Positions 1 through 28,470 of a stretch of DNA of 60,299 bases are shown here, in pieces. The position numbers and the translations under genes were made by a program. This DNA is from an uncultured virus (IMG/VR IMGVR_UViG_3300029305_001143). Lineage: Duplodnaviria > Heunggongvirae > Uroviricota > Caudoviricetes. The DNA lies in the IMG/VR virus record IMGVR_UViG_3300029305_001143. One strand, given 5' to 3'. Below the pieces are notes generated by a model that saw only the letters and a program-made list of their open reading frames with translations, searched no databases and was not told the origin of the DNA. Every line of letters starts with the position of its first letter. Positions within the stretch are counted from its first letter, which is position 1.

Positions 1-1207
1 AGAAGGGGTTCTTGTAGACAGTCCACTTGTTGGACAGAGTACCGATCTTGTGAGGACCATTGATCTGCTTAGTGCCCAGAGAGTCAGCCTTGAACTCTTC
101 CAGAGTCTCGATGATGTTACACACATTGACACCAGCGATGATGAAGTTAGCTCCAACACGCTTAGTGCTAGTGAAGATCTTGTTGCTCATCTCAGTGAAC
201 ATATCGATGATAGTACGCTTGTACTCCTGGTAGCTCAGAGAAGACTTGGGATTCTGGCAGTCCCACTCGAAGCCAGTGTGAGCAGCCTTAGCATACAGTT
301 CCTTCAGCAGCTCGCCGTCGATCTCGAACTTGATCTCGTTGGACATAGCAGTGACCAGCTCGGACTCAGCGTCGATGCCCTTCATCTTCTGCAGTTCGAA
401 GCCAGCATCAAGCAGCCAACGAGCACGCAGCTTGCGAGGGAAGGCTTCCAGAGACACAGAAGCCAGATCCAGATCGATCTGAGAGAAACCAGTGGTAGTC
501 AGATCCATGTCGTAGCGATAGTCGACAGTGATAGGAGCGTCAGCAGCAGGAGCAGTGGTGAACTGCATGACTAGAGCACCAGTAGCATAGTTGATAGTAC
601 CAGTGACACCAGCACCCTCGATAGCACCCTCGCCATTATCAGTAGCCAGGATACCGCCAGCATTGATAGCCACAGTGCCCTTGCGCAGAGGAGTGTAAGC
701 CAGAGCGACAGAGAACTCGGTCTTAGAGCCATCACCTAGACCAGCAGACTCACCGAAGATTCTGTCATTGGAGAAGTTGAACTCTCCATCCTGACCAGTG
801 AAGGGGTTGTTCAGAGCAGTGCCCTGCTGAACAGTGCCCTTGTTATTACCATACAGATACTGCAGGTAGAAGATAGCACCATGCTTGGCGTTCATAGGCT
901 GAACGGACACGATCTCGTGAGCGATCAGGTTAGGAACAGTAGCGGAGATGACATCGAAGCCATAGTCGATGAAGGTACCCAGGTTAACAGCACGAGTAGT
1001 CTCGTCCATACGAGCAGCGTACTGATAGGTGTTCTCCAGCAGAGTAGCAGTGGTAGCGATGATAGTGTCGGAGATAGAAGTCTTGTTCTTCTCCTGATAT
1101 CCTTCACGGATAGCGACAGTGTAGTCTTTCCATCTACGAGACTCAGACAGATCTAAGCCACGAGCAATGACACTCTCAGCGAGAGTCTTGTTATTACTGA
1201 ACTTCAT
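1..1207 (-). CDS. Major capsid protein, T4 gp23-like (3' end outside window)
   Basis: Not in the ORF track because it has no stop in the window. Hand translation from ATG 1207 (RBS GGAGG): MKFSNNKTLAES...VPNLIAHEIVSVQPM...IFYL...RKLRARW...GIDAESEL...EIKFEIDGE...VYKNPF, which are gp23 motifs. Lies downstream of the prohead protease. Confidence 0.93.
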   Translation of the reverse strand, partial: MKFSNNKTLAESVIARGLDLSESRRWKDYTVAIREGYQEKNKTSISDTIIATTATLLENTYQYAARMDETTRAVNLGTFIDYGFDVISATVPNLIAHEIVSVQPMNAKHGAIFYLQYLYGNNKGTVQQGTALNNPFTGQDGEFNFSNDRIFGESAGLGDGSKTEFSVALAYTPLRKGTVAINAGGILATDNGEGAIEGAGVTGTINYATGALVMQFTTAPAADAPITVDYRYDMDLTTTGFSQIDLDLASVSLEAFPRKLRARWLLDAGFELQKMKGIDAESELVTAMSNEIKFEIDGELLKELYAKAAHTGFEWDCQNPKSSLSYQEYKRTIIDMFTEMSNKIFTSTKRVGANFIIAGVNVCNIIETLEEFKADSLGTKQINGPHKIGTLSNKWTVYKNPF

Positions 1208-1223
1208 TGTGAATTAACCTCCA

Positions 1224-2342
1224 TTATACTTTTGATACTATAGCAGCCAACCCTGACAGCTTTCTATCCTTCTTGAGGATCTCACTCTCAGTCAGAGTTT
1301 GACTCTCAATCTTGATCTTAGCTGGACGAGTTCTACCTAGTGAAGACAGAGAATTCAATCTATTCTCGATTTCTTCGTCAGTAGTCGCTCCTTCTAGCAG
1401 CTCCGATACTTTACTATAAGACATGCCACGCTTTTCAACAGCTAGCTGCTTCTGAGTCTCAATAAGCTTCTCCTGCATCTGATCGTAATCTTCTCTAGTC
1501 AGCGAAGATTCCTTCAGAGAATTGTAAGCTTCTTGGAGCTTGAACATATTCTTGAGTAGCTTCTTGTACTTAGACTCAGACTCTTTTAGCTCTTGCTTCA
1601 GACTCTTGATCTGTTCTCTTGACTTGACTAATAGCTCAGTATCTGATTCGATAGTAGCTTGTGAAGATTCTAATAGACTTCTTAGACTATTGATCTCCAC
1701 TTCTTGTATATTAATCTCTTCGTTAGGAGTAGTCTTCCTCTCGATGAGAGATTCACGGATTCTATGTATCATATCCCGGATAGATTGAGTCTCTACTGCT
1801 TCATTCAAAGGTAGCTTAGACTCGATATAGTGTAAGCTATCAGAGAGCTCAGTAGATTTATCTGGAGATAAGATAGCGCTAGCGAATGATGGATCAGCTA
1901 CTAAGTCATAAGTGATAAGCTTCAACTGAGTAACATCTACTCCATCTCTAACTTGTCTAGTAGCTCCCAGACCTCTGGAAGAGATACCTAAGGGAATGCC
2001 TGCCTTGACTAGTGCTTGAGCTATCAGACCTGCAGGAGTATCTAGTAGTTCGACAGAACCATAGATCTTCTTGACTCCTCCATCTTCCATGATCTCACAG
2101 TCAGTGATAACATGAGAGACATTAGAGAGTCTGATCTCATCATAGTCCATAGGGTGATCCAATTCACCTAGCAGTCTCTTCTCTTTAATTTTAGGTATCA
2201 AGTCTTCATATGCAGGTACATACACCTCTTCAGGATATCTTCTACCATTCTGATTGAAGGTACCTATCTCAGCGAACAGACCTGATAGAGTCTTTTCGTC
2301 TTGAGCTAGCAGAGGATGTAATGAATTTTCTACAAGCTGCAT
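1224..2342 (-). CDS. Prohead protease, T4 gp21-like, with C-terminal coiled-coil extension
   Basis: Motifs NQNGRRYP, GELDHP, SSRGLG, YDLVADPS. ATG 2342 chosen because of the GAGGTG RBS; the track starts at 2354. Confidence 0.92.
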   Translation of the reverse strand: MQLVENSLHPLLAQDEKTLSGLFAEIGTFNQNGRRYPEEVYVPAYEDLIPKIKEKRLLGELDHPMDYDEIRLSNVSHVITDCEIMEDGGVKKIYGSVELLDTPAGLIAQALVKAGIPLGISSRGLGATRQVRDGVDVTQLKLITYDLVADPSFASAILSPDKSTELSDSLHYIESKLPLNEAVETQSIRDMIHRIRESLIERKTTPNEEINIQEVEINSLRSLLESSQATIESDTELLVKSREQIKSLKQELKESESKYKKLLKNMFKLQEAYNSLKESSLTREDYDQMQEKLIETQKQLAVEKRGMSYSKVSELLEGATTDEEIENRLNSLSSLGRTRPAKIKIESQTLTESEILKKDRKLSGLAAIVSKV

Positions 2343-2397
2343 TGAAGTGATCACCTCGTTTCTATTAATAAAGTGTAATATTAGTGGATACTATAGA

Positions 2398-2432
2398 AAT
2401 ACTGAGTGCAGTACTTAACCACACTCAGTATT
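2398..2432 (-). terminator. Inverted repeat, possible terminator
   Basis: AATACTGAGTG-N13-CACTCAGTATT between the core protein and protease genes. Confidence 0.45.
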
Positions 2433-2443
2433 CTACGTTATAT

Positions 2444-4336
2444 TTACTTACCTAGGATAGCTTGAGCCTGAGGATGCAGAGACTCATTGACCTCTTTCTC
2501 CAGCTCCTGCCACTTATCTCTGTATCTACCAACTCCACCAGCATCGGAAGAAGCCATAGTCTTAGTCAGACGATCCTGTTCAGCCTTGCTCATCTTCTCG
2601 AATTCCTTCTTAGTCACCCAAGGAGTACCATCGGCATCGCACATACAGATCTCTTTAGCCTCACGAGCTCTCTTAGCCTTACGCATCTCAGTCAAGTGAC
2701 GCTTCAGCTCAGCTAACTCATCATCAGTGATATCTTCATCATCTTCAGGACTCTCAGGCTCCTCCTCAGGAGTCTCTTCTGACTCAGGCTCCTCAGCAGG
2801 ATCCTCCTCAGGCTCTTCCTCTCCTTCAGGCTCTTCACCAGTGAGCTCAGCGATCTGCTCATCAGTAATGCCTGGTAGATTCAGCACTTCCTCAGTATCC
2901 TTAGCTAGCTGCTCCTGTACTCCAGGATCCTCAGTATCGCCATGCTCATCAGCTAACTCCTTGTGTAACTCGACACGAGCGTCAGCGTACTCCTGATTGA
3001 AGTCTTCCTCTTCCTCAGAGATGATATCACCTTCCTCGTCAGAGATGAAATCATTCTCTTCATCTTCGATAGGAGGTAACTCCTCTTCCTCTTCATCCTC
3101 TAGTAGCAGAGCCTCAGAGAACTTAGCTAGAGACTTCATAGTCTTCTTGCTAGGAGCCTTACCTTCCTTCAGACTACCTAGGACACTCTCGACATCCTTA
3201 GATAATATAGAAGTACACTCTTTGAAGATAGTAATGAACTCAGGATTATGCTCTAACTCAACTGAGAAGTGAGTCATAGCAGAATTAGCAGCCTTGTATA
3301 GATTGATAGCTTCTTGACGAGTCAGAGCATTACCTTCCTTCAGCTTCTCATGCATCTTCTTGAAGGTTTTCATGAAAGCCTTATCCTTCGACTTAGCAGC
3401 AAAATCAGACAGTCCCTTGTAGGACCTAGACTCTGTTACATTCTTAGACTCTCCGAAGAACTCATACTCTCCCTCGACGTAGATATCAGTCAGATCGTCT
3501 TCAATAGAGATCATATCTCCTGCCATATCTAATCCTAAATTTCTTAGAGTAGTAGCTAATGCTGAGATCATCTTAGAGTTACTACCTCCGAAGCTGAGTC
3601 CATAGGAATCAGGATTAGCTTCTGCAGGAAATGCTACATCCATAATTACCTGATAAACTTTAAAGTTACTAGAGTCTTCTTCATTAAGTGTCTTCTCCTT
3701 AGACTCCTCGACAGGAGCCTGAGGCTGAGAAGCTGCAGCTTTGCGTTCCTTACGGATAGTCTCAAGGTGCTTAGTTAGCTCTTCTAGCTCCTCGTCAGTC
3801 AGGTCAGGCTCTTCAGCTTCCTCTAATCCTTTGTAAGCAATCTTAGGATTCCTCTGTCTGAACTCTCTCTGAGCTCTCTCCTCTTGGTCAGCTTTCTCTC
3901 TAGCATCTCTCTTCTGCAGATAGTTAGGATCACTGACTGTACGCTTGATGAATTCTTCCTTTCTCTTCTGAAAGTCTGCCTTAGGATCCTTCTTCTTGAA
4001 GAGACCTTCGTCCATGTCCCCTAGAGCTCTCTCTTCCTTAGGCTCTACCTCATCGTAGCACTTCTCAGGTACCAGATCTTCATCCTTCATCTGACCAGAC
4101 TCTACCAGACTCTTCAGTTCCTTGATAGTACCTAACTGCTTGGAGAGACGATCAGTCTCAGTAGGATGATTCTTTACATCCAGTAAGTGAGCTTCAGCTA
4201 GCTTATATAAACTAGTACCTTTCTCACACTGGAAGGTGAGCTTGTAGCTCTCAGAGACCATATCAGACAGACTGTATCTACGAACAGGATTCTCTGTCAT
4301 CTTCAGATTCTCTAACAAAGATTTATAGTTTCTCAT
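2444..4336 (-). CDS. Acidic prohead core/scaffold-like protein
   Basis: Between portal and protease. Very Glu-rich, with many hydrophobic-x-E(S/A) sites and an internal repeat. Confidence 0.65.
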   Translation of the reverse strand: MRNYKSLLENLKMTENPVRRYSLSDMVSESYKLTFQCEKGTSLYKLAEAHLLDVKNHPTETDRLSKQLGTIKELKSLVESGQMKDEDLVPEKCYDEVEPKEERALGDMDEGLFKKKDPKADFQKRKEEFIKRTVSDPNYLQKRDAREKADQEERAQREFRQRNPKIAYKGLEEAEEPDLTDEELEELTKHLETIRKERKAAASQPQAPVEESKEKTLNEEDSSNFKVYQVIMDVAFPAEANPDSYGLSFGGSNSKMISALATTLRNLGLDMAGDMISIEDDLTDIYVEGEYEFFGESKNVTESRSYKGLSDFAAKSKDKAFMKTFKKMHEKLKEGNALTRQEAINLYKAANSAMTHFSVELEHNPEFITIFKECTSILSKDVESVLGSLKEGKAPSKKTMKSLAKFSEALLLEDEEEEELPPIEDEENDFISDEEGDIISEEEEDFNQEYADARVELHKELADEHGDTEDPGVQEQLAKDTEEVLNLPGITDEQIAELTGEEPEGEEEPEEDPAEEPESEETPEEEPESPEDDEDITDDELAELKRHLTEMRKAKRAREAKEICMCDADGTPWVTKKEFEKMSKAEQDRLTKTMASSDAGGVGRYRDKWQELEKEVNESLHPQAQAILGK

Positions 4337-4368
4337 AACTTACCTCTCTTTACTAATAGTCTTAGTAA

Positions 4369-6048
4369 TTATTCACCATCACCTATACTAGGTAAGAGTG
4401 ATTCTTTGATACGCTCGAAGTTCTCTTCATTTTTACCATCTTTACTAGGATACATTGCTCTTAGATCAGAGTGCTTATAGACATGATGACTCAATACTCT
4501 AGTATTCTCTTCCTTCGATCTATTGAAGATGATATCTAGTGTCTGGTCATCTATCTCCAGATACTCCTTCATGATCTTCTCAGCAGCTACTTCTAGTTGC
4601 AGAGGATTCTCAGATGTAGCATCTAGCATATCCTTCATAGAGGTCAGTAAGTCCCACATATCTCTTGCATTACCTATCTGCCTCTGTTGTTGCTCTGCTC
4701 TAGCTTCTTCGTCTATAGCAGATACAGGAGTCAGTGTAATATCTAGATCTAACTCATCAGGGTCTAATCCTAAGTAAGCTAAGTGGATACTGATGAGTCT
4801 CTTCAGTCCAGATACCATAGTATTCTGGAGCTGTCCTACGGATCTAGCATATCGGATATCTAACTGAATCAGAGTAGATCTTGCATTCAAGTCTTGCTCA
4901 TAGTTCAGATAAGCCTTAGGGATTTTCAGAGCAGCGAATAGCTTGTTGAGCAGATACTCTAAGTCATACTGCTCTTTCATATTCGCATCCCCACCTACGG
5001 ACTCGATACGAACATCATTCTGAGGATCTCCCACTGGGATGAAAATATCCTCGTCATAATTGATAGTATGCTTCGAAGAGGAGTAGATGCCTTCTTCGAT
5101 ATTCATATTGATATCTTTCTTCAGTAGATTAGCGTAGTTACGTATAGTTTCATACGCCTTGTCAGGTGTGACATCACCTACATTGATAAGGAAGATATTT
5201 CTACGGATACTATTAGTCAGGCGAGAGAGTAGTAGCATATTCTCTACGAATCTTAGCTGAGCATATACTTTGATAGCAGGTCGTAAGATAGACTGACCAT
5301 ATGCAGAAGTTAAATTCTTATCAAAAGTATCCTTAGTTAGTCCTAGTCTTGCGTAGCTACTCTCTTCCTTGTAGATATCACCTTTATGTCGGAAATGGAT
5401 GAACTCCCAAGGAGCGTACAAGTCTTCATTAGAGTAGACAGTATTCTGGTTATTAGCGAACGCTACTAACTTGCCATTCATATCTCTACGATCAATGATA
5501 CCTGGATAGATTGTATCATTGATGTAAGTGACACCTTGTTCATAATCTCCGTCGACTCTAACGAATAAGTCTCCGTACTTAGCTACTGCTCTAGCCCACT
5601 TAGCTACCTTATCCTCTAACTCGAACTCTGCTATGAACTCTTCTACTAGAGCAGTAACCTTAGAAGACTCTGAAGTCACATGGATGATGATACCATCCTC
5701 ATCAGCTTGAGTAGCATCATCTGACATGATGTCCAGAGCAGAAGAAATATAAGCAGTACTCTCATCCATCTCATCATAGATCTCATATCTCTGATTTCTA
5801 GTATGAGGAGTATTACCTACAGAGTTAAAGTTAGAAGAACTGAATACTGATCGTAGGAGAGCAAAATAGTCAGTCATAGATTGACTTCTCTCTCCTGCTT
5901 CATTATAGATTTGATTCTTAGCTATAGCAACTAACTGGTCTATATCTGCAGGTTTCAGATTAGCTATGTACTTTAATAGAGCAGCTTCATCAGGACCTTG
6001 AGATACAGGAGTAGGCTCTACAGTATCACTCTTTTTAAATAGTGCCAC
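4369..6048 (-). CDS. Portal protein, T4 gp20-like
   Basis: YDEMD...ISSALDIMSDD, KYGDLF, YGQSILRPA..VYAQLRFVEN.LL.RL, FLINVG, DLEYLLNKLFAALKIPKAYL, DIRYAR; head-module synteny. Confidence 0.92.
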   Translation of the reverse strand: MALFKKSDTVEPTPVSQGPDEAALLKYIANLKPADIDQLVAIAKNQIYNEAGERSQSMTDYFALLRSVFSSSNFNSVGNTPHTRNQRYEIYDEMDESTAYISSALDIMSDDATQADEDGIIIHVTSESSKVTALVEEFIAEFELEDKVAKWARAVAKYGDLFVRVDGDYEQGVTYINDTIYPGIIDRRDMNGKLVAFANNQNTVYSNEDLYAPWEFIHFRHKGDIYKEESSYARLGLTKDTFDKNLTSAYGQSILRPAIKVYAQLRFVENMLLLSRLTNSIRRNIFLINVGDVTPDKAYETIRNYANLLKKDINMNIEEGIYSSSKHTINYDEDIFIPVGDPQNDVRIESVGGDANMKEQYDLEYLLNKLFAALKIPKAYLNYEQDLNARSTLIQLDIRYARSVGQLQNTMVSGLKRLISIHLAYLGLDPDELDLDITLTPVSAIDEEARAEQQQRQIGNARDMWDLLTSMKDMLDATSENPLQLEVAAEKIMKEYLEIDDQTLDIIFNRSKEENTRVLSHHVYKHSDLRAMYPSKDGKNEENFERIKESLLPSIGDGE

Positions 6049-6120
6049 CTCTTCACCTCCTTGCTTACGATATATAGTGAGAGTTCTACTACTATGCTAT
6101 ACGAAAATTAGTATAGTACA

Positions 6121-6513
6121 TCACTCTGACTTCTCGTACTCTAATTTAGATTTGTCCAGCTCATTCAGATGATTCAGTACTGCAAGTACTGCTTGATATA
6201 CTTGGATGATAGTTTCTACGTCAGAGGCAGGCATCTCTCCGTAGCTCTTCATCTTCATGTAGAATGTATCCTCTGCAATCATATGAGTGATATCAGGATG
6301 TCTATAACCTTCCTTGATAGGCTCTATAATTAGCTCTGGAACAGTAGAACCTCCTGAGCTTTGAGGGATCATATCTACTAGTTTATACCCAGCTTTCCTC
6401 AAGAAGATATCTAGCTGGTAAGCATTAGGCTGACCCTGTGGATCCCACTTACTGTTCAATGTCTTCTTAGTATTGAAAGCTTCCTTGATTTTATCTTTCA
6501 TACCCAATCTCAT
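6121..6513 (-). CDS. Hypothetical protein
   Basis: 130-aa ORF with a GGAGG RBS. Confidence 0.7.
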   Translation of the reverse strand: MRLGMKDKIKEAFNTKKTLNSKWDPQGQPNAYQLDIFLRKAGYKLVDMIPQSSGGSTVPELIIEPIKEGYRHPDITHMIAEDTFYMKMKSYGEMPASDVETIIQVYQAVLAVLNHLNELDKSKLEYEKSE

Positions 6514-6536
6514 ACACTCCCTCCTATATTAATATA

Positions 6537-6560
6537 GAAGGGAGGATCACTCCTCCCTTC
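6537..6560 (-). terminator. Rho-independent terminator-like hairpin
   Basis: GAAGGGAGGA-N4-TCCTCCCTTC followed by an AT-rich tail on the minus strand. Confidence 0.55.
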
Positions 6561-6565
6561 ATGAT

Positions 6566-6670
6566 TTAGAGTATATTACAGCCAATAGCTGTAATTATGT
6601 ACAGTTCATCATGGAACTCCTCAGGGATATTCTGAGTATTATCATCGACTTTTAATTTGATATAACCCAT
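6566..6670 (-). CDS. Small hypothetical protein (34 aa)
   Basis: MGYIKLKVDDNTQNIPEEFHDELYIITAIGCNIL with AGGAGG RBS; below the ORF-track cutoff. Confidence 0.4.
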   Translation of the reverse strand: MGYIKLKVDDNTQNIPEEFHDELYIITAIGCNIL

Positions 6671-6691
6671 GACCTATCCTCCTGAATATAA

Positions 6692-8602
6692 TTAGTCTCT
6701 TAATATCCAGTCATCATTCTCCATCTGGGACTTACGAAGATTAGTTAACTTCTGTAAAGCACTCATAGCAGCATTAACATTAGTATTCTGAGCTACGTGA
6801 TTTCCTTTTAGTTTAGAGTAAAACTCTTGAGCATTATAGACTGCACCACATAGTGAGTCGGAGATATCCTTCGAACCAGGACTACCATCATACTTCACTA
6901 TAGGGTGATCTACCTTCTTCGCTTTTCTATCATACTCTAAGTCACGTAATTCCTCTACTACAATACTATTGTAGTACCCTACCAGTCTCTGCTCTAGTAT
7001 ACAAGCTCTAAGATTTAGATAAGGAACATCAGTTCTATCTACAGATAGTAGACCTGCAGGCAATCCAGACATCTGTAAAAGCTGGATACTGTCAGCTGAC
7101 TGGAATCCGTCGTACGTAATCTTCTTGAACTTGTATCCTATATAAGAGCTCAACCAAAGCAGGAACTCACGAATCTTGTAGAGAGGAATCTCACTACCTG
7201 GGATGGCTTTGACACCTAACATCAGGTCAATATCATACACATTCTCAGAGATCTTATCTATAGCTCCCGTAGGTGTGTATCTCTCTACTGTGATCTCCTT
7301 GCTACTATGAACTACCGTGAGTCCTAGTCTGTCTCCTTTCAAGCCAATATCGATATGTGCGAATCTTGGCTTGTTGAGATCTCTTCTCAAGATTGATAGA
7401 TCATCCAAGAAATCTCTAATATCATCTACACTATCCAATCCCATCTGGAATTCTTCTGTGTAGAATGGAGCTCTTCTGCTCTTGTCGAAGCAGACATCAA
7501 TGCGTCCTGCATAAGGTATCAGCTTGCTAGTAGACACAGCAGAGATACCTGCGATGTCCTTTAGAGCTTCATTGATATCTCCCTCGAATGCTACACGATA
7601 CTCTACTGGGACATCAATGATACGATATCCTCTTTCTATCAGCTCAGATATATTATCATTCGCATCAACGATCTTACTTTCCTTAGTCTTATCTCCAACA
7701 GCTACTTGGAATTTAGCTCCTACGTATGTCTCAGGAGGTTTGATATTCCAGATAGGCTCATCTACTACCCAAGTAGTCTTCAGACTCTTGATACTCTGGA
7801 CATACTGTTCCAAGAAGTCTAGCTCCGTATTCTTAGAGGACACTAGCATCAGGATACCAGGAATACGTCCTTGCTTCAAGAATCGAGACTCAAGTCGTCT
7901 ACGGATGTTACGGTACATGTCCATGACAGAGTTCTTAGAACCCTTAGGAGCACTAGAGAAGTTGACCTCGTCTAGCACAGCTCCTAGTACGTTCTTACCG
8001 ATAGTATGAGTAGTCTGAGAACCTGCCATCAGTGCAATGTTCTTAGGGAACTCAATGGAATACTCGTACTTACCTCTAATATCAACTCTCTCACAGAACC
8101 AAGGAGATAATCTGATAGCTTCCACTATCAGAGAATACAATCCTTGGTATGCTAGATCCAGAGTCAAGTTCATGACTACGAATACTATCTGTGAGTTTCC
8201 AGACAATCCATAGAATTTCTGAGGATCCTTTAAGCACATCGTTCTATACATCAAGTAGATCAGAGCTATCGATGCGACAGTTGTCTTGCCAACACCGATA
8301 GCTCCTGTTAGTGCTACTTCGAAAGCTTTGTCTGGATTGTCATGAAAGAAGTTGTGTAAGAAATTTCTCCAATAAGGATAGATATTCTTACCATTATTGT
8401 AGACTTTACCTAGGTAGTAATCATTCTCTAGGAACTCATCTATCGAGACAGGGATCTCTTCATAATCCACTTTATAGAGACTCTCAATAGGAGATAAATC
8501 TAAAGAAGGAGAGTTGTGTGAAGCTGATAGTAATGCATAGAATAATTTACTTTCTTCTTCGTTGAGATTCTGTATCTGAGGTATGCTAGATAAATTATTC
8601 AA
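6692..8602 (-). CDS. terL: Terminase large subunit
   Basis: Walker A GAIGVGKTT, Walker B VLDE, coupling motif VSS, nuclease motifs HIDIG, YDGFQS, KVDHP, SKDISDS. Confidence 0.93.
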   Translation of the reverse strand: MNNLSSIPQIQNLNEEESKLFYALLSASHNSPSLDLSPIESLYKVDYEEIPVSIDEFLENDYYLGKVYNNGKNIYPYWRNFLHNFFHDNPDKAFEVALTGAIGVGKTTVASIALIYLMYRTMCLKDPQKFYGLSGNSQIVFVVMNLTLDLAYQGLYSLIVEAIRLSPWFCERVDIRGKYEYSIEFPKNIALMAGSQTTHTIGKNVLGAVLDEVNFSSAPKGSKNSVMDMYRNIRRRLESRFLKQGRIPGILMLVSSKNTELDFLEQYVQSIKSLKTTWVVDEPIWNIKPPETYVGAKFQVAVGDKTKESKIVDANDNISELIERGYRIIDVPVEYRVAFEGDINEALKDIAGISAVSTSKLIPYAGRIDVCFDKSRRAPFYTEEFQMGLDSVDDIRDFLDDLSILRRDLNKPRFAHIDIGLKGDRLGLTVVHSSKEITVERYTPTGAIDKISENVYDIDLMLGVKAIPGSEIPLYKIREFLLWLSSYIGYKFKKITYDGFQSADSIQLLQMSGLPAGLLSVDRTDVPYLNLRACILEQRLVGYYNSIVVEELRDLEYDRKAKKVDHPIVKYDGSPGSKDISDSLCGAVYNAQEFYSKLKGNHVAQNTNVNAAMSALQKLTNLRKSQMENDDWILRD

Positions 8603-8630
8603 TGCTCCTCCTCCTACCTAATATAATAGA

Positions 8631-9017
8631 TCAATAAAAGTCTGAAGGTTTCATGCCTGCATCAGCATAAGGATCATATCTCACAGGAGATCCTTCGTAC
8701 TCCGTATCCTCTACTCTCATAGCTTCTTTATATAGCTTAGAGACTCTCTGGAGCATCTCCTCTGGGATATAGTCTTCCATAGAGATAAGCTTCATCTCTA
8801 TCTCTTCAAGCTCGTAGTAGAGATCCCCTCTATCACTGTAAGGGATATCTCTCATCTCTTCCTGAATATCATCTATCCGGTACTCGATCTTATTGAGCTC
8901 CTCTTCAAACTGCTCAGACGTATAGTCCTCATAATCCACTGACTCTTTCAGAGGACGTACCACACGATAGCCTGACTTTCTTAGTATCTTCTTAGCTAGT
9001 CTTATATCTTTATCCAA
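8631..9017 (-). CDS. Putative internal head protein (leader AKKILRKSGYRV...LKES)
   Basis: Leader shared with 10165..11301 and 27130..28470; acidic body. Confidence 0.6.
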   Translation of the reverse strand: MDKDIRLAKKILRKSGYRVVRPLKESVDYEDYTSEQFEEELNKIEYRIDDIQEEMRDIPYSDRGDLYYELEEIEMKLISMEDYIPEEMLQRVSKLYKEAMRVEDTEYEGSPVRYDPYADAGMKPSDFY

Positions 9018-9023
9018 GATGAA

Positions 9024-9806
9024 TCACTTTCCTTCTGCGTCGATCTTATTGAGTACACTCTCGAGGACTCGCTTCTCCTCATCAGTGAACTCAATCTCCT
9101 TTGACTCCCGGATCTGCTTAGACTCCTTATAGGACTTACGCATATACTCTGCAAGCTTATCTTTGATACGCTTCAATGTATTTTCTACCTGCTTGTAGGA
9201 CAATCCAGTCACCTCCATAATATCAGCATTCTTATAGCCCTTAGCCTTAAGTCTGACTACTTCCAGTTCCTTAGGAGAGAACTTCTCCCTCATGAACTTC
9301 TCCAGCTCATCAGCACCTTCTTGACCTAGTACTTCCTCCTCAGGACTGAGACCTTTAGAAGCTACTCTATCTCCTACAGTACCAGAATCTCCATCATCGC
9401 CTACTACCTTATCGTCCAAAGAACCTGCCAGATTATTTATCTTACGAACATCGGCATCTTCTTTACGTAGCATATCAGTTAATTTCCTACTCATAATCAG
9501 ATTAGCGTATGCAGAGAATCCATGCTTATGGACTGTAGGATCATAAGAAGATACAGCCTCCCAGAAAGCTATGGAAGCTACCTGCTTCACATCTTCTTGA
9601 TCTCCTGACCCTGCATCAAAGAAATATCTCCTAGCCTGCTTACTTATGAGAGGATCATACTGCACTAATAGTTCTTCGAAGGCTGTCTGATCTCCATCTT
9701 GTGCCATACGGATGAGATCATCATGATCCATATCTTTATAACTTGCTCTAGCTTCTAGGAGTCTATTCTCATTCAATTTCTTGATGATAGAACGAATACT
9801 ATCCAT
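9024..9806 (-). CDS. sigH: SigH-like RNA polymerase sigma factor with N- and C-terminal extensions
   Basis: YKDMDHDDLIRMAQDGDQTAFEELL..Y..LISKQARRYF...DQEDV.Q...FSAYANL...SLD...SPEEEV...FSPKELEVV..KAKGY...YKQVENTLKRIKDKL follows Bacillota SigH along its whole length. Confidence 0.85.
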   Translation of the reverse strand: MDSIRSIIKKLNENRLLEARASYKDMDHDDLIRMAQDGDQTAFEELLVQYDPLISKQARRYFFDAGSGDQEDVKQVASIAFWEAVSSYDPTVHKHGFSAYANLIMSRKLTDMLRKEDADVRKINNLAGSLDDKVVGDDGDSGTVGDRVASKGLSPEEEVLGQEGADELEKFMREKFSPKELEVVRLKAKGYKNADIMEVTGLSYKQVENTLKRIKDKLAEYMRKSYKESKQIRESKEIEFTDEEKRVLESVLNKIDAEGK

Positions 9807-9820
9807 ACTCTACCTCCTTA

Positions 9821-10099
9821 TTATACTTCGACGAACACCTTATTATTCTTGCCAGCTTTGATATCCTTGATGATATTATTAGCATAATGCCAAGGCACTC
9901 CATTGCACACACCACTGAATCCATGATAACCATAGATATTAGGTAGATCATGGTCAATGGCGATAGCGACAGTACCAGCAAGACCAGTGAGGAGTTCCTC
10001 CAGAGTCTTGCCGATATACTTCTTCAGGTCTTCGTCGAACATAGGATCAAAATCTTCGCTCATACGATTCTCCATGAGCTTCTTGACGATACTGTCCAT
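9821..10099 (-). CDS. Putative internal head protein (leader MDSIVKKLMENRMSE)
   Basis: Shared leader; first gene after the class I promoter at 10125. Confidence 0.6.
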   Translation of the reverse strand: MDSIVKKLMENRMSEDFDPMFDEDLKKYIGKTLEELLTGLAGTVAIAIDHDLPNIYGYHGFSGVCNGVPWHYANNIIKDIKAGKNNKVFVEV

Positions 10100-10124
10100 A
10101 ATTAATCTCCTCTCAGATTAATGA

Positions 10125-10162
10125 CTTACATTATTATAATTCGTGATATCTTCTAGAATCCC
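10125..10162 (-). promoter_or_regulatory. Class I (SigH-like) promoter
   Basis: AGGGAT-N14-CGAATTATAATAATGTAAG. Confidence 0.8.
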
Positions 10163-10164
10163 TC

Positions 10165-11301
10165 TTATCCGAGGTACTCAATAGCCCAAGGATGCCGAGG
10201 ATCATTACCTGACCACCAGAACTGACCATAGTAGTCTACTCTGATATCATAAGTATCATAGTAGCCTTCCTCGTCTTCATCCTCAGACTCAACCCAGTCT
10301 TCCGCAGTATCACTACCTGTATCGATGATTCTCTGCTCGAATCCTTCACCCCAACCATCAGACATCTGACCTGTGATCTCCTCTTCGAGCATCTCAATCT
10401 CCTCACGAGATAGCTCCTTCGAAGTAGTTACTGTGATAATACAGTCGATGCCGTCGAAAGACATACTCATATTAGTAACTCCCAGAGACTCTGGAGTATA
10501 CTTATGCATGTCAGACTCATTCCAGTCTTCCATAGCCGTACTCTGCAGTTCCTCCATATAATCCATATGAGGAGGGTACTGATACCATTCATCTACTTCA
10601 CTCTGTACCATCAATCTATACTTGATAGCGAATCGGTACTGATTAGTAGCAGTATCAGTAGCTTCATCATTTCTAGCAGGTCTCATCCAGGCGATACAAG
10701 CCTTACTACCTCTACCATCGACAGTCTTAGTAATCTCGTATCCGTTCTCTCGAGCATACTCGTAAGCCTCATCTTCAGTAGGGAATTCCATAGACTTGTC
10801 TTCATCGAGATTACGAGGAAGCTTAGTCCAAGCCTGGATTAGTTCACCTGTAGAGAGCTTACGAACTTCCTCTTCATTGTAGTCTCCATACTGGACTAAT
10901 TCCTTACGCATATCTTCAGCACTCAATGCACCAGCAGCTTCTTCGATAGAGTATCCATGCTCTTCGAGACCGAAAGTACCAATGAGCTCATTACGAATAT
11001 CCTTAGGTACCTCGAACATCTTATCACGCAGAATTAGCTTAGCACTCTTGAGTCCATCCCAACCATCTACGTGACCGATATACTTCTCAAAATCTTCATC
11101 CTCTACTCTGTCATAGCAGAGGATAGTCATAACTCCCTCAGAGTCAACCTGAATCTTCTTACAGATGAACTCAGCTCCTGTAGGTTCATCTAAGATGAGA
11201 TCCTCAGAGGACTCAGATACAGTATATCCCTGAGACTCCAGGATAGCCTTAGCATCCTCAATTCGTCTCCGCTCATGCAGTCTCTTTACTATAGAATCCA
11301 T
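10165..11301 (-). CDS. Putative multi-module internal head protein
   Basis: Leader MDSIVKRLHERRRIEDAKAILESQGYTVSES; C-terminal module contains GQMSDGWGEGFEQR. Confidence 0.6.
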   Translation of the reverse strand: MDSIVKRLHERRRIEDAKAILESQGYTVSESSEDLILDEPTGAEFICKKIQVDSEGVMTILCYDRVEDEDFEKYIGHVDGWDGLKSAKLILRDKMFEVPKDIRNELIGTFGLEEHGYSIEEAAGALSAEDMRKELVQYGDYNEEEVRKLSTGELIQAWTKLPRNLDEDKSMEFPTEDEAYEYARENGYEITKTVDGRGSKACIAWMRPARNDEATDTATNQYRFAIKYRLMVQSEVDEWYQYPPHMDYMEELQSTAMEDWNESDMHKYTPESLGVTNMSMSFDGIDCIITVTTSKELSREEIEMLEEEITGQMSDGWGEGFEQRIIDTGSDTAEDWVESEDEDEEGYYDTYDIRVDYYGQFWWSGNDPRHPWAIEYLG

Positions 11302-12272
11302 TACATACTCTCCTTCTTACTCTCAAGAGAAAGCTCCTTAGCTTTAGCACTCTTAAGTACATCCTTCACTTTATCTAATACTCCTTGGCTACGGAGAGAC
11401 TTGAATGCTAAGTTACCCGCACCTGTCTCACCATGAGCAGACAAGGAGTCTTTTCTCATCAGATACATCTTATCGACGATATCTTGTAGCTCCTCGATAG
11501 AGCCTACATTCTCTATAGACTGGAGGATCTCATTCTCTATCCTCTCAGCGTCTGCAATCTCTTCCTCAGTAGGCTCAGCTGAAGGAGTAGGTTCCTTGAT
11601 CCACTTATCCATAGTCACGGAGTAAATACCGTTAGACATAGAAGAGGAGTTCACGTCCTCGACGTACAACTCCACATCAATACCTTTGATAGTAATATCA
11701 TAGGAATTATTAAAGTTACTTTTCACACTATCGAAGTACAGTCTAGCGATAGTCTCAGGATCACTCACTTCAGACAAATCAGTCACGATATGTACATCTA
11801 AGTCAGAATACTGATTATAATTATAAGCAGCATTACTACCTACTAGTCTGATATCGAAGATCCTGATATCTACTTCTGCATACTCCAAGAATGCATGGAC
11901 TATCTCGAATATCTTAGCCTGTACTTCAGGCTTTAACTTATCTCCTTCGAATAATGCAGGATTTAACTTAGGAGAGTTCTTCATGTAATCAGACAGTTTC
12001 TCATAGAGAGTGGACTCATAGACACTATGAGTACCAATATCAATTAGATACAATGTCTCTGGGAAGATTTGATATACTACTCGCAGATTGTTATCTAATT
12101 TGAAGGATCTATAATCTTTCATCCTACCATTGAGAGCATGGTCTCTGGCAGCAGGAGGGAGAGTATCACCATTAGCTAAGAGGGTAGTATACTCTTCGAG
12201 CTTCTTGCGATACTTCTTATCTATCTTCTTGTAGCTCTTCTTGAAGGTATTGCTGACGTCAATCTTCTTCAT
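11301..12272 (-). CDS. YafQ/RelE-family RNase domain fused to a Pol-beta-type nucleotidyltransferase
   Basis: N-term FKKSYKK...LPPAARDHALNGRMKDYRSFKL..NLRVVY...IDIGTHS; C-term LVGSN..YNY...SDLDVH, DVELYVE, GNLAFKSLR. Start placed at MKKID (12272), overlapping the upstream small ORF. Confidence 0.8.
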   Translation of the reverse strand: MKKIDVSNTFKKSYKKIDKKYRKKLEEYTTLLANGDTLPPAARDHALNGRMKDYRSFKLDNNLRVVYQIFPETLYLIDIGTHSVYESTLYEKLSDYMKNSPKLNPALFEGDKLKPEVQAKIFEIVHAFLEYAEVDIRIFDIRLVGSNAAYNYNQYSDLDVHIVTDLSEVSDPETIARLYFDSVKSNFNNSYDITIKGIDVELYVEDVNSSSMSNGIYSVTMDKWIKEPTPSAEPTEEEIADAERIENEILQSIENVGSIEELQDIVDKMYLMRKDSLSAHGETGAGNLAFKSLRSQGVLDKVKDVLKSAKAKELSLESKKESM

Positions 12273-12381
12273 CTTCAGCATCCAGGGAATCCAGCATAGA
12301 GAAGAACTCATTCAAAGTCATAGGACCATTGAGTTGACCATAGTCTCTCTCAATAGACTCTCTAATCTTCATCTCATCCAT
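12259..12381 (-). CDS. 40-aa putative mini-antitoxin (DinJ/RelB C-terminus-like)
   Basis: MDEMKIRESIERDYGQLNGPMTLNEFFSMLDSLDAEDEED. AAGGAG RBS, acidic, 14-nt overlap with the toxin start; absent from the ORF track. Confidence 0.6.
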   Translation of the reverse strand: MDEMKIRESIERDYGQLNGPMTLNEFFSMLDSLDAEDEED

Positions 12382-12397
12382 ATCCCATTCTCCTTTC

Positions 12398-12435
12398 CTT
12401 ACATAATTATAATTCGTGATATAAAGGAGAATCCC
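12398..12435 (-). promoter_or_regulatory. Class I (SigH-like) promoter
   Basis: AGGGAT-N14-CGAATTATAATTATGTAAG. Confidence 0.8.
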
Positions 12436-12599
12436 TCTTACTCAGAAATGGAATACTTTCCATGTCTTATTAGCTTCCAGCATAAGCTTATAAGTGATTA
12501 TTATATAATGATAATTATATAATAATAGACCTCTCCTCTTACGGAGTTGCTTATGATTTATGTGCTGCTGATGCAGCATCGGAAGCGAAAGCTTCCAGC

Positions 12600-12630
12600 A
12601 TAAGCAACGTAACAGATCTAGACAATAGGC
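12600..12630 (-). promoter_or_regulatory. Class II promoter
   Basis: GCCTA-N16-CGTTGCTTAT. Confidence 0.6.
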
Positions 12631-12634
12631 GACT

Positions 12635-14127: not shown

Positions 14128-14202
14128 TTAAGTAACCTCCTCAGATCTTTCAGTTCAGTTGTATAATATAATGCGGGGAGCTGTCCCCAAAATATAATAA
14201 AA

Positions 14203-14236
14203 CCTCTCCACGAGCCTAGAACAGGCCATGGAGAGG
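14203..14236 (-). terminator. Rho-independent terminator
   Basis: CCTCTCCA...TGGAGAGG followed by TTTTATT on the minus strand. Confidence 0.65.
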
Positions 14237-14240
14237 ATAC

Positions 14241-14880: not shown

Positions 14881-14918
14881 CTTACATTATTATAATTCGT
14901 AATGTAAGGGTGAATCCC
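14881..14918 (-). promoter_or_regulatory. Class I promoter inside a perfect 20-bp inverted repeat (14870-14919)
   Basis: AGGGATTCACCCTTACATTA-CGAATTATAA-TAATGTAAGGGTGAATCCCT. Confidence 0.8.
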
Positions 14919-14936
14919 TTCTTATATTTACTTTAT

Positions 14937-17582: not shown

Positions 17583-17590
17583 CTCACATA

Positions 17591-17621
17591 ATAAGAGACG
17601 TAACAGACTCTATAATTAGCC
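17591..17621 (-). promoter_or_regulatory. Class II promoter, variant
   Basis: GGCTA-N16-CGTCTCTTAT. Confidence 0.45.
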
Positions 17622-19866: not shown

Positions 19867-19874
19867 CTCACATT

Positions 19875-19905
19875 ATAAGTAACGTGACAGAGTCAATGAT
19901 TGAGC
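19875..19905 (-). promoter_or_regulatory. Class II promoter
   Basis: GCTCA-N16-CGTTACTTAT. Confidence 0.65.
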
Positions 19906-19932
19906 TTCCTATATAATATAAAGGGATCCACC

Positions 19933-19970
19933 CTTACATCATTATAATTCGTGACATAAGAGTGGATCCC
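19933..19970 (-). promoter_or_regulatory. Class I promoter inside an inverted repeat (19921-19972)
   Basis: AGGGAT-N14-CGAATTATAATGATGTAAG. Confidence 0.8.
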
Positions 19971-19999
19971 TTCCTAGACTGTATTAAATTTAGATGAAT

Positions 20000-20791: not shown

Positions 20792-20813
20792 ATTACATAC
20801 CTCCTATAATATA

Positions 20814-20860
20814 ATAGTCCTCCACTAAGGACATATTCTATCCATAAAGTGGAGGACTAT
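20814..20860 (-). terminator. Inverted repeat, possible terminator
   Basis: ATAGTCCTCCACT...AGTGGAGGACTAT. Confidence 0.55.
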
Positions 20861-20891
20861 CTTCTATAGTAGATACTGAATCACTATGATA

Positions 20892-21414: not shown

Positions 21415-21765
21415 TCAATATCTAGTGTGGGCGAAGTAAGCGATCTCTTCGAGAGCAGCATTCAAGACATTCTCCCAAGAGGACTGCCAGCTATGCTCGA
21501 GTACCTCAGTAGCGAAGTATCCTTCGATCATATTATCCTGAGGAGTACGAGCAGTGATGAAGCTGTCATCGTCCATATCAAGAGCATCCATGAGACGGAG
21601 GGAGAAGCAGTTGTCCTTCTCTTCACAGTAGTCCAGATAAGACCACTGGATAGATACCAGATAGCTACCGAAGGACTTAATACTCCAAGTCCAGTTAGAA
21701 TCCTTCTCGTTGATCTCCTTGACCTTATTACGAATCAGATCCTCATAATCTCTAAAGTTCTTCAT
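21415..21765 (-). CDS. Hypothetical early protein, paralogue of 22144..22485
   Basis: Colinear similarity over the full length. Confidence 0.8.
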   Translation of the reverse strand: MKNFRDYEDLIRNKVKEINEKDSNWTWSIKSFGSYLVSIQWSYLDYCEEKDNCFSLRLMDALDMDDDSFITARTPQDNMIEGYFATEVLEHSWQSSWENVLNAALEEIAYFAHTRY

Positions 21766-22143: not shown

Positions 22144-22485
22144 TTAATAAACGTCGTGAGCATAGCTAGCCAACTCGCAGATAGATCTAATGATGGCGTC
22201 CTCCCAGGACTCTTGCAGGCTCCAGGCTACTTCATCAGACACGAAGTGACCTTCGATCATATTATCATGAGGATCTCTACAGGTGATGAAGTATTCACCG
22301 AAGTCGATAGGAGGAGCTAGACGAAGGAGGAAGCAGTCATTCCTCTCCCACTTCAGATAGCTCCAATAGATACATACTCGATACTCATCGATGGATCTCA
22401 CAGACCAGTTGTAGTCAGGATCCTGCTCATTGATCTCGGAGACACACTCACGGATGAGAGTCTCATAGTCCTTAAAGGTCTTCAT
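22144..22485 (-). CDS. Hypothetical early protein, paralogue of 21415..21765
   Basis: Colinear similarity over the full length. Confidence 0.8.
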   Translation of the reverse strand: MKTFKDYETLIRECVSEINEQDPDYNWSVRSIDEYRVCIYWSYLKWERNDCFLLRLAPPIDFGEYFITCRDPHDNMIEGHFVSDEVAWSLQESWEDAIIRSICELASYAHDVY

Positions 22486-27045: not shown

Positions 27046-27083
27046 CTTACATCTATATAATTCGGTATAAGTATAGAAATCCC
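27046..27083 (-). promoter_or_regulatory. Class I promoter; its -35 overlaps a terminator-like hairpin (27078-27112)
   Basis: AGGGAT-N14-CGAATTATATAGATGTAAG. Confidence 0.75.
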
Positions 27084-27129: not shown

Positions 27130-28470
27130 TTAGAACTTCTTGAACAGAGTGATGTATCCATACTGATTCTGATAGACGAACTGTCCCATACCTGGAACCT
27201 CTACTAAGATATTATATCCTCTTCCAGGCATGTGCACTGTCTTGATATCCTCACGATCCATGTCATGGAAGATCTCCATGACATCTCCTGCACCTCCATC
27301 ATCCTCAGAGATCATGTAAACATTATCATAATCTCCACCTAGCAACTCACAGGGAATATCTAATTCCTCAGTACCATCTCTCTCTTGACTGAATAGATCT
27401 AATCCACCATAGTCCCTGAGTAACTGAGAGATAGGATACATCTGACTCTTCAGATACTCTAAGCTACCTGCGATATCTTCATCATCAGCTAAGTAGTTAT
27501 CATTCTTATTGACCTTGACTCCTGCATCTTCCGTAACTTGACCAGACTGCTCTCCATAGATAGCAGAGATACTATCATTGAAGATATAAGCAGAAATCTC
27601 ATTATCCTTAATGACCTTGTGTCCCTCTAAGTCATATACTTGGAATCCTCCGAATGTAGAGACAGGGGATGATCCTGCTAACTTCTTATCGAAGAATGCA
27701 TAAGCAGGACCTCTATCATCTTTCATGCAAGTGAAGATATGGTAAGGATCATTACCTAGAGTCTTCATGATCTTGTTAAAGACAGACATACTACCGAAAT
27801 ACTCGATGATATCTGACTTACTACTACGGAACATAGGATCTTCGAAGTACATGACGTCACTAGCATTTAGGATAGCAGGCTTGCTGCTATCAGACTCTTC
27901 CAGACTCTTAGACTCCTGCAGATCTGAACCCTGTAGCTTAGCTACTAGCTTCAATCTAGAATTCTCAGGGATATAGTAGACTGAATTACCCCACTCGTAA
28001 GCCTTCAAGAACTTACCAAGAGGAGAGATGATCTTAATATAATGTCTAGAAGGAATATGAGGGAAGTCTTGGTCAGCTCCGTACTTCACATCTACACTAC
28101 TACCTCCTGTGATTTCTTCTAAGTTATTATAGAGGTAGACTTCAGCTTCATCACTAATGATATCAAGATCATAGACAGCACTCTCACGATCCATGATGTA
28201 GATGGTAGAGTCCTCGAAGAAGTTCTTCAGCTCTTCCAGGAAATCAGGATCCTCGTCATAGTCAGCAGGACTATCTACTAGATCTCTATAATACTGGTCA
28301 TGTCCCTGCTCCTTCAGAGACTGCAAGAAGTTCACAATCTCTTCTCTATGCTGATCGAGATCTTCAGACTCCTGTAGTCCCTTAGTTACCTTGTATCCAG
28401 CACTTTCCAGGATACTCTTAGCTAACTCAATTTGTCTATTCTCATGTAACTTGTTGACAATTTCTTTCAT
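27130..28470 (-). CDS. Putative multi-module internal head protein
   Basis: Leader MKEIVNKLHENRQIELAKSILESAGYKVTKGLQES; internal LQESKSLEES and VTED. Confidence 0.6.
   Translation of the reverse strand: MKEIVNKLHENRQIELAKSILESAGYKVTKGLQESEDLDQHREEIVNFLQSLKEQGHDQYYRDLVDSPADYDEDPDFLEELKNFFEDSTIYIMDRESAVYDLDIISDEAEVYLYNNLEEITGGSSVDVKYGADQDFPHIPSRHYIKIISPLGKFLKAYEWGNSVYYIPENSRLKLVAKLQGSDLQESKSLEESDSSKPAILNASDVMYFEDPMFRSSKSDIIEYFGSMSVFNKIMKTLGNDPYHIFTCMKDDRGPAYAFFDKKLAGSSPVSTFGGFQVYDLEGHKVIKDNEISAYIFNDSISAIYGEQSGQVTEDAGVKVNKNDNYLADDEDIAGSLEYLKSQMYPISQLLRDYGGLDLFSQERDGTEELDIPCELLGGDYDNVYMISEDDGGAGDVMEIFHDMDREDIKTVHMPGRGYNILVEVPGMGQFVYQNQYGYITLFKKF

Follow-up and report, generated by a model that had tools for sequence, protein, structure and literature searches.

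How does a phage begin to transcribe its genome when the genes for its own sigma factors lie behind promoters that something must already be able to read? This question is raised by a sigma factor gene at positions 9024-9806 of a 60,299-nucleotide stretch of DNA (hereafter "the window", i.e., this whole stretch) from an uncultured virus of the class Caudoviricetes, IMG/VR record IMGVR_UViG_3300029305_001143. A first-pass annotation of the sequence had proposed that this SigH homologue is packaged in the virion and would start transcription on injection. Following this up, we found that the sigma opens with a leader peptide that is modular, conserved and rich in a protease motif (L-x-E), and that this leader is concentrated in the T4-type head module of two phages; these, along with the first-promoter problem that a delivered sigma would solve, are the points for packaging. 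By analogy, the leader is best read as a head-targeting propeptide akin to the capsid-targeting sequence (CTS) of phage T4, a reading that we favor with some reserve.

The gene itself leaves little room for doubt, and membership of its product in the sigma-70 family is practically certain. The features concerned are the following:

9024-9806, minus strand: SigH-like sigma-70 family gene, 260 amino acids, ATG start (Pfam, PHROG, NCBIfam, PDB match, AlphaFold2 model)
9753-9806, minus strand: leader of this sigma, MDSIRSIIKKLNENRLLE, codons 1-18, with L-x-E at residues 11-13 and 16-18, absent from a bacterial SigH
9027-9131, minus strand: C-terminal tail of this sigma, residues 226-260, with YKES, IRES and VLES, conserved in all homologues
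39189-39977, minus strand: second phage sigma, SigB/F/G-like, without leader, serving as an internal control (TIGR02980, E = 2.5e-21, below its cut-off)

The product of 9024-9806 exceeded the cut-offs of the Pfam models Sigma70_r2 (E = 2.5e-9, 37.2 bits, cut-off 24) and Sigma70_ECF, the latter spanning residues 30-223 (E = 5.1e-8, 33.5 bits, cut-off 21.1), and of the NCBIfam superfamily model TIGR02937 (78.7 bits, cut-off 42.9). It also matched PHROG 351 "RNA polymerase sigma factor" (E = 1.2e-23); region-4 models came just below their cut-offs (GerE, 22.1 vs 23.5 bits; Sigma70_r4_2, 17.2 vs 25.7). The closest solved structure was 3mzy_A "RNA polymerase sigma-H factor" (E = 3.2e-21), with an alignment extending through the sigma-4 domain. 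Among specific NCBIfam models, the SigH equivalogs TIGR02859 and NF006148 scored best, at 65-76.5 bits, far under their cut-offs of 208-414, and the protein is thus SigH-like rather than a SigH orthologue. The earlier description as a SigH-like sigma holds. An AlphaFold2 model based on a 7-row alignment (mean predicted local distance difference test score [pLDDT] of 71) placed a leader helix at residues 3-24, a sigma-2 domain at 28-129, a disordered acidic linker at 121-151, a helical sigma-4 domain at 155-226, a disordered stretch at 227-236 (pLDDT < 50) and a terminal helix at 242-259.

Comparison with a genuine bacterial SigH indicates that the leader is an addition. A cellular SigH of 186 amino acids, found at a typical cellular locus inside a GenBank record labelled "Bacteriophage sp." (MT835476.1), is ~30% identical to the phage sigma over residues 22-118 and aligns only from about residue 19, so that the first 18-24 residues of the phage protein have no counterpart. 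The segment concerned (39062-57343 of MT835476.1; L011) carries alanyl- and prolyl-tRNA synthetases, SSB, ribosomal proteins and the cellular SigH, and looks bacterial rather than viral; it was dropped as a phage relative, its locus being that of a bacterial SigH, and served as the cellular comparison only. Among 5.8 billion proteins, six homologues of the phage sigma were found (46-65% identity), and all six keep the leader in the form MDSSRxIIKKLRENRLL, as does the sigma of the one relative found in IMG/VR, contig G001. Both L-x-E motifs of the sigma leader (residues 11-13 and 16-19) are present in every one of the 7 sigma sequences compared.

Within the window, the leader recurs on other proteins, making four clear bearers and one weak one, the sigma included. 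The others are listed here ("class I" denotes the recurrent promoter described below; HMM, hidden Markov model; ORF, open reading frame):

9821-10099, minus strand: leader-bearing ORF of 92 amino acids (MDSIVKKLMENRMSE), first gene behind the promoter (N-terminus alignment)
10165-11301, minus strand: acidic ORF of 378 amino acids with the full leader module (MDSIVKRLHERRRIEDAKAILESQGYTVSES; profile/HMM match)
27130-28470, minus strand: acidic ORF of 446 amino acids, preceded by a class I promoter at 28501-28521 and carrying the full leader module (MKEIVNKLHENRQIELAKSILESAGYKVTKGLQES; profile/HMM match)
52663-53865, minus strand: acidic ORF of 400 amino acids with a weak leader-like N-terminus (MSDEIVRRLRSRSQES; leader HMM, E = 0.0017 among 81 N-termini)

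Three adjacent ORFs (9024-9806, 9821-10099 and 10165-11301) start with MDSI, and ORF 27130-28470 opens with MKEIVNKLHENR. When sigma residues 1-25 were aligned with the 80 other N-termini of the window, the top three local alignments were to ORFs 9821-10099, 10165-11301 and 27130-28470, with scores of 45, 43 and 41 vs a 95th percentile of 36 for the best scores of 300 shuffles, one of which reached 45. In register, 11 of 15 leader residues are identical between the sigma and the 92-residue ORF, 5 of them through different codons; the likeness is therefore kept at the protein level and does not reflect a recent DNA copy. The leader HMM found no leader on the second sigma, 39189-39977.

This leader belongs to a large and so far unnamed family. 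A profile built from six N-termini of the window and searched against 1.84 billion cluster representatives (E ≤ 1e-3) recovered 107 clusters, in ~101 of which the match starts right at the N-terminus. The module comprises 35-40 amino acids (consensus MKEIVxRLHENRQIELAKSILESxGYKVxKKLxES) and is followed by unrelated, mostly acidic cargo of 53-515 amino acids. The motif [LIVM]xE stands at three fixed places of the module in 94, 94 and 86 of 96 full-module members, and reaches a density of 4.07 per 45 amino acids in the module vs 0.85 in the cargo of the same proteins. None of the 56 clusters scanned (of the 107) reached a Pfam cut-off or had a PHROG covering the module, and the 40-residue module had no match in GenBank phages. 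A match of one module protein (P0028) to PHROG 1064 "prohead" was set aside as being at chance level (E = 0.0096 among 56 proteins).

The sigma gene lies immediately upstream of packaging and head genes of the T4 type:

6692-8602, minus strand: large terminase (terL), directly downstream of the sigma and of a 128-residue ORF (PHROG 2, E = 4.2e-7)
4369-6048, minus strand: T4 gp20-type portal (Portal_T4, E = 1.3e-42)
2444-4336, minus strand: acidic scaffold-like protein of 630 amino acids, N-terminus MRNYKSLLE↓N, L-x-E at residues 7-9 (from the sequence; the arrow marks a cut or candidate cut)
1224-2354, minus strand: T4 gp21-family prohead protease, beginning (M)ITSMQLVE↓N (Peptidase_S77, E = 1.1e-13, 51.6 bits, cut-off 27)
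2-1207, minus strand: T4 gp23-type major capsid protein, its C-terminus cut by the window end (Gp23, E = 3.5e-41)

According to the available text of a paper on T4, its gp21 protease recognizes L/I-x-E and cleaves head proteins behind it, residues 1-10 of IPIII are enough to bring foreign proteins into the head, positions 4 and 7 matter for targeting and positions 8 and 10 for processing, and Alt is trimmed at its two termini (PMC9026906). N-termini in the T4 record read MKTYQEFIAE↓A (ipII/ipIII), MAKINELLRE↓S (gp24), MLKEQLIAE↓A (gp22) and MNEPQLLIE (gp21); in the window, the leaders have the form MDSIVKKLxE↓N, in which position 4 is hydrophobic (I), position 8 is L and position 10 is E. The pattern [LI]xEN occurs 22 times in 17,490 window residues, and 5 of these fall in the first 14 residues of leader proteins, the protease and the scaffold-like protein. 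The resemblance to the T4 CTS (IPI-III) and to the propeptides that gp21 removes (Alt, gp24, gp22 and gp21) thus lies in a phage equipped with a gp20 portal, an S77 protease and a gp23 capsid protein, in a short N-terminal peptide on unrelated proteins with ~10 residues to L/I-x-E and a hydrophobic position 4, in hypervariable cargo, and in candidate sites at both ends of the sigma as in Alt. Unlike the T4 peptides, the full module of the window has 35-40 amino acids, three L-x-E sites and no sequence similarity to them, and its cargo is acidic and includes a sigma; targeting and cleavage are here deduced from sequence. A complex prediction for the scaffold-like protein with the leader scored 0.00 and counts in neither direction.

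Two small acidic paralogues elsewhere in the window (21415-21765 and 22144-22485, minus strand) open with MKNFRDYEDLIRN and MKTFKDYETLIRE, which resemble MKTFKEF of T4 ipI and MKTYQEFIAE of ipII/III, and a class I promoter lies ahead of each. Since G001 has no counterpart of them, this likeness to T4 internal proteins may be due to chance.

The relative allowed us to ask where leaders concentrate. G001 is a 112-kb IMG/VR contig (estimated 69% complete) with the same gene order and a portal 75% identical to that of the window, and its head module comprises 14 ORFs from the NrdG-side genes to the capsid protein. Leader-HMM matches (E < 1e-3) were found for 4 of these 14 ORFs vs 2 of 127 elsewhere (hypergeometric p ~8e-4, by hand arithmetic); both outside matches are full-module genes, and both were in the HMM training set. 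The four head-module bearers are the sigma (369 amino acids), a protein like the 378-residue ORF of the window, a 166-residue ORF and a 128-residue HNH protein between scaffold and protease. Weaker leader-like N-termini were seen on a methyltransferase-like ORF, the scaffold-like protein and a 315-residue protein adjoining terL, the last of which matches PHROG 16619 "minor head protein" (E = 6.2e-9). By eye, this 315-residue protein had suggested an R-S-ExE ADP-ribosyltransferase like T4 Alt; this went unconfirmed, as it gave no Pfam and no PDB sequence match, an hhalign probability of 0.1% against T4 Alt and an AlphaFold2 pLDDT of 49.

A leader need not imply packaging. The sigma may be an ordinary middle-gene factor that stays in the cytoplasm and amplifies itself on class I promoters, being first made through host SigH, another host sigma or early read-through, while the leader helix serves another purpose such as binding a common partner, stability or regulated turnover. 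We regard this as a serious competitor, somewhat short of an even chance. Phage-encoded sigmas are common and normally cytoplasmic, as far as the available text of a review goes (PMC7824862), and this sigma carries only the first part of the module. Yet such a factor gives no reason why one N-terminal peptide, conserved at the protein level, should be common to the sigma, the HNH protein, the methyltransferase-like protein and several orphan proteins of the head module, leaves the conserved leader L-x-E in a phage with a gp21-family protease unexplained, and sits uneasily with a second window sigma that has no leader.

The other end of the sigma adds a second set of candidate sites. As the first-pass annotation had it, the tail holds YKES (residues 226-229), IRES (232-235) and VLES (247-250); the AlphaFold2 model places the first two within the predicted disordered residues 227-236 and VLES in the terminal helix. 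In fused relatives, the tail becomes the linker to a further acidic domain of ~110 amino acids, ending ...DPYxxxGMxxSDF[YVM], which continues the sigma in 3 of the 6 homologues and in G001, and the junctions read L/M/I-x-E↓S; the other three homologues stop at the same place as the window sigma. In the window, the domain is encoded separately:

8631-9017, minus strand: ORF of 128 amino acids, TTG start at 9017, in the same frame as the sigma, following it after one TGA (9024-9026) and two codons

The body of this ORF corresponds to the C-terminal domain fused to the sigma in those three homologues and in G001, and the ORF opens with an inserted second half of the leader module (LAKKILRKSGYRVVRPLKES; HMM E = 5.6e-10). 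Judging from these sequences, the domain would have acquired a leader piece of its own on becoming a separate polypeptide, as expected of an address tag. The sigma TGA is identical in a second IMG/VR record of the same phage and in a sequencing-run contig, and 4 DNA runs showed no variant at the junction of sigma and 128-residue ORF, one contig spanning 8600-10035 with 0 differences. Recoding of this TGA was rejected, TGA being the stop of 29 of 81 window genes. A search of the ESM Atlas with the 128-residue ORF gave no usable lead.

We then turned to the promoters that this sigma might read. The copy in front of it is laid out as follows:

10125-10163, minus strand: class I promoter, with AGGGATT at 10157-10163, an 11-nucleotide spacer and CACGAATTATAATAATGTAAG at 10125-10145, upstream of ORF 9821-10099 and the sigma

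The 21-mer CACGAATTATAATAATGTAAG has 15 copies in the window at ≤3 mismatches, all on the minus strand, where 0 are expected (100 shuffles), and two diverged copies at 27046-27066 and 39147-39167 bring the total to 17. Their layout is AGGGATT-N11-CACGAATTATAAT, i.e., AGGG, 17 nucleotides, and a GAAT overlapping TATAAT, and none has a TTGACA-type -35. Bacillota SigH promoters have -35 AGGA and -10 GAAT with a spacer of 17-18 nucleotides, according to the available text of PMC12456013. The phage sigma resembles Bacillota SigH in sequence (the best relatives among sigma models and solved structures), in two-domain architecture and, for the class I promoters that it may read, in the AGGG/GAAT pattern, and differs in the extra leader and tail, in the C-terminal domain that is fused or in frame in relatives, and in the GTAT of G001 discussed below. 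G001 carries 18 class I copies on its coding strand, one immediately before its sigma, so that in this one relative the co-occurrence of leader-bearing sigma and class I promoter that the first-pass annotation had asked for was found. The rest of its layout stands too: the sigma adjoins leader-bearing ORFs beside terL, with the class I copy at 10125-10163 upstream. This promoter precedes the 92-residue ORF, the sigma, the 128-residue ORF and terL, with no convincing terminator between promoter and terL, and sigma and terL thus share one apparent operon. That class I promoters are read by this sigma we consider probable.

Promoters of the SigA type, scanned as TTGACA, 16-18 nucleotides and TATAAT with ≤2 mismatches on the coding strand, are not enriched (7 vs 10.3 expected in the window, 24 vs 33 expected in G001). 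Since both window sigma genes lie behind class I promoters only, class I must be read by something before any phage sigma exists: this may be host SigH, read-through from an early region outside the window, or a sigma arriving with the DNA. The first two would suit the unpackaged sigma introduced above, as class I has SigH geometry and the sigma is SigH-derived, which makes it plausible that host SigH reads the same sites, and as all genes are co-oriented, which makes read-through possible.

The gene's location raises a different alternative, namely a late-gene sigma that reads another class, e.g., the TATTATATTATA-type elements found after hairpins before the portal, the protease and 6121-6513, with class I left to host SigH, the second phage sigma or an outside factor. 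A place immediately upstream of the packaging and head genes is classic for a late regulator, window positions 1-10,124 hold no class I copy, and A/T-rich TATA-like elements precede several head genes. G001 tells against it: a class I copy lies inside its structural module at 38087, before genes leading to the portal, with others further downstream, and its 112 kb hold 18 class I copies and only this sigma, i.e., a single sigma region-2 match. In addition, two-domain sigmas that possess region 4 usually depend on a -35, an element present in class I and missing from the TATA-like ones. We judge a late role of this kind to be improbable.

Three further sequence patterns accompany these promoters. 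A long inverted repeat (-35 region and transcript start, up to 19 bp, co-varying arms) occurs in 3-4 of the 17 class I copies (14881-14936, 19933-19999 and 55739-55779) and places the promoter core in the loop of a strong hairpin, with a minimum free energy of -30 to -33 kcal/mol; the other copies lack it. Hairpins were rejected as a general class I feature, with ≥7 complementary bases between the arms in 4 of 17 copies only. A second recurrent intergenic motif, roughly CTGTnACGTTACTTATAATGTGAG, lies at 12382-12634, 17583-17620, 19867-19999, 39061-39188, 46208-46246, 49973-50086 and 52481-52662 and may represent another class of promoter, possibly one read by the second sigma. G+C-rich hairpins followed by TATTATATTATA-like A/T elements are found at 2355-2443, 6049-6120, 6514-6691, 14128-14240, 20792-20891, 31645-31836 and 56473-56529, several of them before head genes; these units look like terminator-plus-late-promoter combinations, reminiscent of -10-only late promoters.

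Putting leader and promoters together, we propose the following course of events. The SigH-type sigma would bind host core RNA polymerase and direct it to the 17 class I promoters, one of which would drive the sigma's own operon (92-residue ORF, sigma, 128-residue ORF and terL), so that the sigma would feed back positively on itself. The leader helix would bind the prohead core and bring sigma into the head, where the gp21-family protease would clip the leader at L-x-E, and part of the sigma pool would then travel inside the capsid, to be injected along with the DNA at the next infection. A genome without an excess of SigA-type promoters could then fire its first promoters, since the sigma would be delivered. 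The steps differ in credibility: carriage of the sigma in the capsid comes close to an even call, on the doubtful side of it, and initiation of transcription by the injected sigma is unlikely, if conceivable. The same low credence applies to the broadest version, in which a T4-type gut phage lineage would have freed all its transcription from host sigmas through a leader-tagged, injected sigma and a self-priming loop on 17-18 promoters, the fused C-terminal domain of relatives being releasable at L-x-E↓S and having become in the window a separate in-frame ORF with a leader piece.

The same leader and protease evidence, and the candidate sites that flank the sigma core on both sides, would also suit a sink or switch: the leader would bring sigma to the protease and head so that late packaging and cleavage end class I transcription, with no role for the ejected sigma. 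A literature search turned up no precedent for this, and by our own reckoning such a sink would be weak, as capsids are few relative to the cytoplasmic protein; we consider it very improbable.

Several observations weigh against the proposal that the leader delivers the sigma in the capsid. Being conserved columns within a single family, the module's three L-x-E sites do not count as independent events. The sigma holds only the first third of the module and is scored at only E = 1.9 by the family-wide 48-column HMM, so that its homology to the module rests on the local leader variant; an HMM of the first 17 leader columns does score the sigma, which was in that HMM's training set. Nor are full-module genes confined to the head module: 27130-28470 of the window and the genes at 23968 and 24362 of G001 stand among replication and nucleotide genes, with class I promoters ahead of them. 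An hmmsearch of the leader HMM against T4 gp20, 67, 68, 21, 22, 23 and 24 gave nothing significant, and an attempt to derive the protease specificity from the capsid protein failed: in the N-terminal alignment, LTE65↓A of T4 gp23 falls opposite a deletion rather than opposite LLE58↓N of the window protein. The specificity of the window protease is consequently not anchored, and, the leader having no T4 homology, the likeness to T4 is one of pattern and context. As for the promoters, GTAT replaces GAAT in 16 of the 18 copies in G001 (CACGTAT vs CACGAAT, a change of one fixed base), with TATAAT kept (e.g., at 32523 and 38087). Placing the class I -10 at GAAT is therefore tentative, and the element might not be read in SigH fashion; what the first-pass annotation said of 17 SigH-like promoters without a TTGACA-type -35 accordingly stands for their number, geometry and lack of TTGACA, and only tentatively for the GAAT. 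An equally simple alternative is that host SigH fires the first promoters with no packaged protein at all. The phage is known from metagenome assemblies alone, and the records are partial (60 kb for the window, an estimated 69% for G001), such that an early region with host promoters or another sigma could fall outside both; this incompleteness also favors an unpackaged sigma. Finally, the remark that no described case of a packaged sigma was known has to be qualified, since a sigma has been reported in virions of Salmonella phage Arash (PMC10585845).

The available text of the Arash report states that Gp10, "RNA polymerase sigma factor RpoS", was identified by mass spectrometry of purified particles with 24 unique peptides and 467 spectra, alongside the phage's own beta and beta' RNA polymerase subunits, and its authors allow for carry-over of abundant proteins (PMC10585845). 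Packaged beside these subunits, the Arash sigma need not act on host core, and, unlike the sigma considered here, it has no leader or CTS described in that text. Arash was not among the 3 tblastn matches of our sigma in GenBank phages, and no sequence relation was detectable. Among the papers listed by the literature search, with supplements outside its scope, none dealt with a packaged sigma that acts on host core or with a sigma bearing a CTS.

Other known systems differ in what is delivered or when it is made. Phage SPO1 runs a sigma cascade through gp28 and gp33/34. Like it and T4 gp55, the phage sigma would replace the host sigma on host core and switch promoter class; those factors are made after infection, and we know of no report of T4 gp55 or the SPO1 sigmas in a virion. 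As far as the available text of a review goes, T4 gp55 is a minimal sigma without region 4, and the virion RNA polymerases of N4-like and phiKZ-like phages are delivered with the DNA and make early transcription independent of host promoter recognition (PMC7824862). What these virions deliver is a catalytic polymerase, whereas the present phage would bring in no more than a specificity subunit for host core; none of the 73 window ORFs scanned with PHROGs matched an RNA polymerase. By analogy, the phage would apply the T4 CTS principle, using a new tag to load a type of cargo that is new as well.

If the proposal were true, it would represent a minimal takeover at injection, in which neither a polymerase (N4, phiKZ) nor a polymerase-modifying enzyme (T4 Alt) is delivered, only the specificity subunit. 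It would explain how a phage of more than 100 kb does without host-type promoters, independent of host growth phase, and would extend the T4 CTS principle to a regulatory protein and to a large unnamed leader family (~100 clusters) of uncultured phages. As a candidate tag, the leader could also serve to load foreign proteins into the capsids of phages on Bacillota-like hosts. If the sigma is not packaged, what is left is a phage sigma of the ordinary kind, whose N-terminal helix is shared with other proteins for reasons yet to be explained.

The window represents 60 kb of a large gut phage (41.5% G+C, essentially all genes on the minus strand) which, judged by portal similarity, is a distant member of the T4 superfamily. 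A tblastn search with the portal returned 956 records, every one at <60% identity; the best few, at ~30%, include Bacillus phage SP-15, a B. cereus phage, a Listeria phage and a Streptococcus phage. Apart from the 3 distant sigma matches (tblastn), the region had no near or protein-level relative among GenBank phages, and there were no relatives among 115 pattern stretches in JGI metagenome contigs or 85 stretches in GTDB genome contigs. In IMG/VR, the same phage was found again in one contig (L001; 10,166 of 10,168 bases identical), besides the single relative G001, and a search of sequencing runs found the phage in 6 DNA runs, all from animal faeces metagenomes, and in no RNA run. Along the direction of transcription, the window runs from replication and nucleotide genes through a block of 15 tRNA genes to the packaging and head module:

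Replication and nucleotide genes: DNA polymerase, ligase, SSB, UvsX, SbcCD and NrdD/G
35133-38675, minus strand: 15 clustered tRNA genes, with an HNH endonuclease gene (36303-36833) interrupting the series

The second sigma, 39189-39977, had no counterpart in the 112 kb of G001. Just upstream of it, a 304-residue protein (39896-40810, minus strand) carries a MazF/PemK-like domain (E = 5.2e-18). ORF 11301-12311, also on the minus strand, is a fusion of a YafQ/RelE-like toxin domain (Pfam, E = 1.4e-16) with a region resembling nucleotidyltransferases (PHROG 36119).

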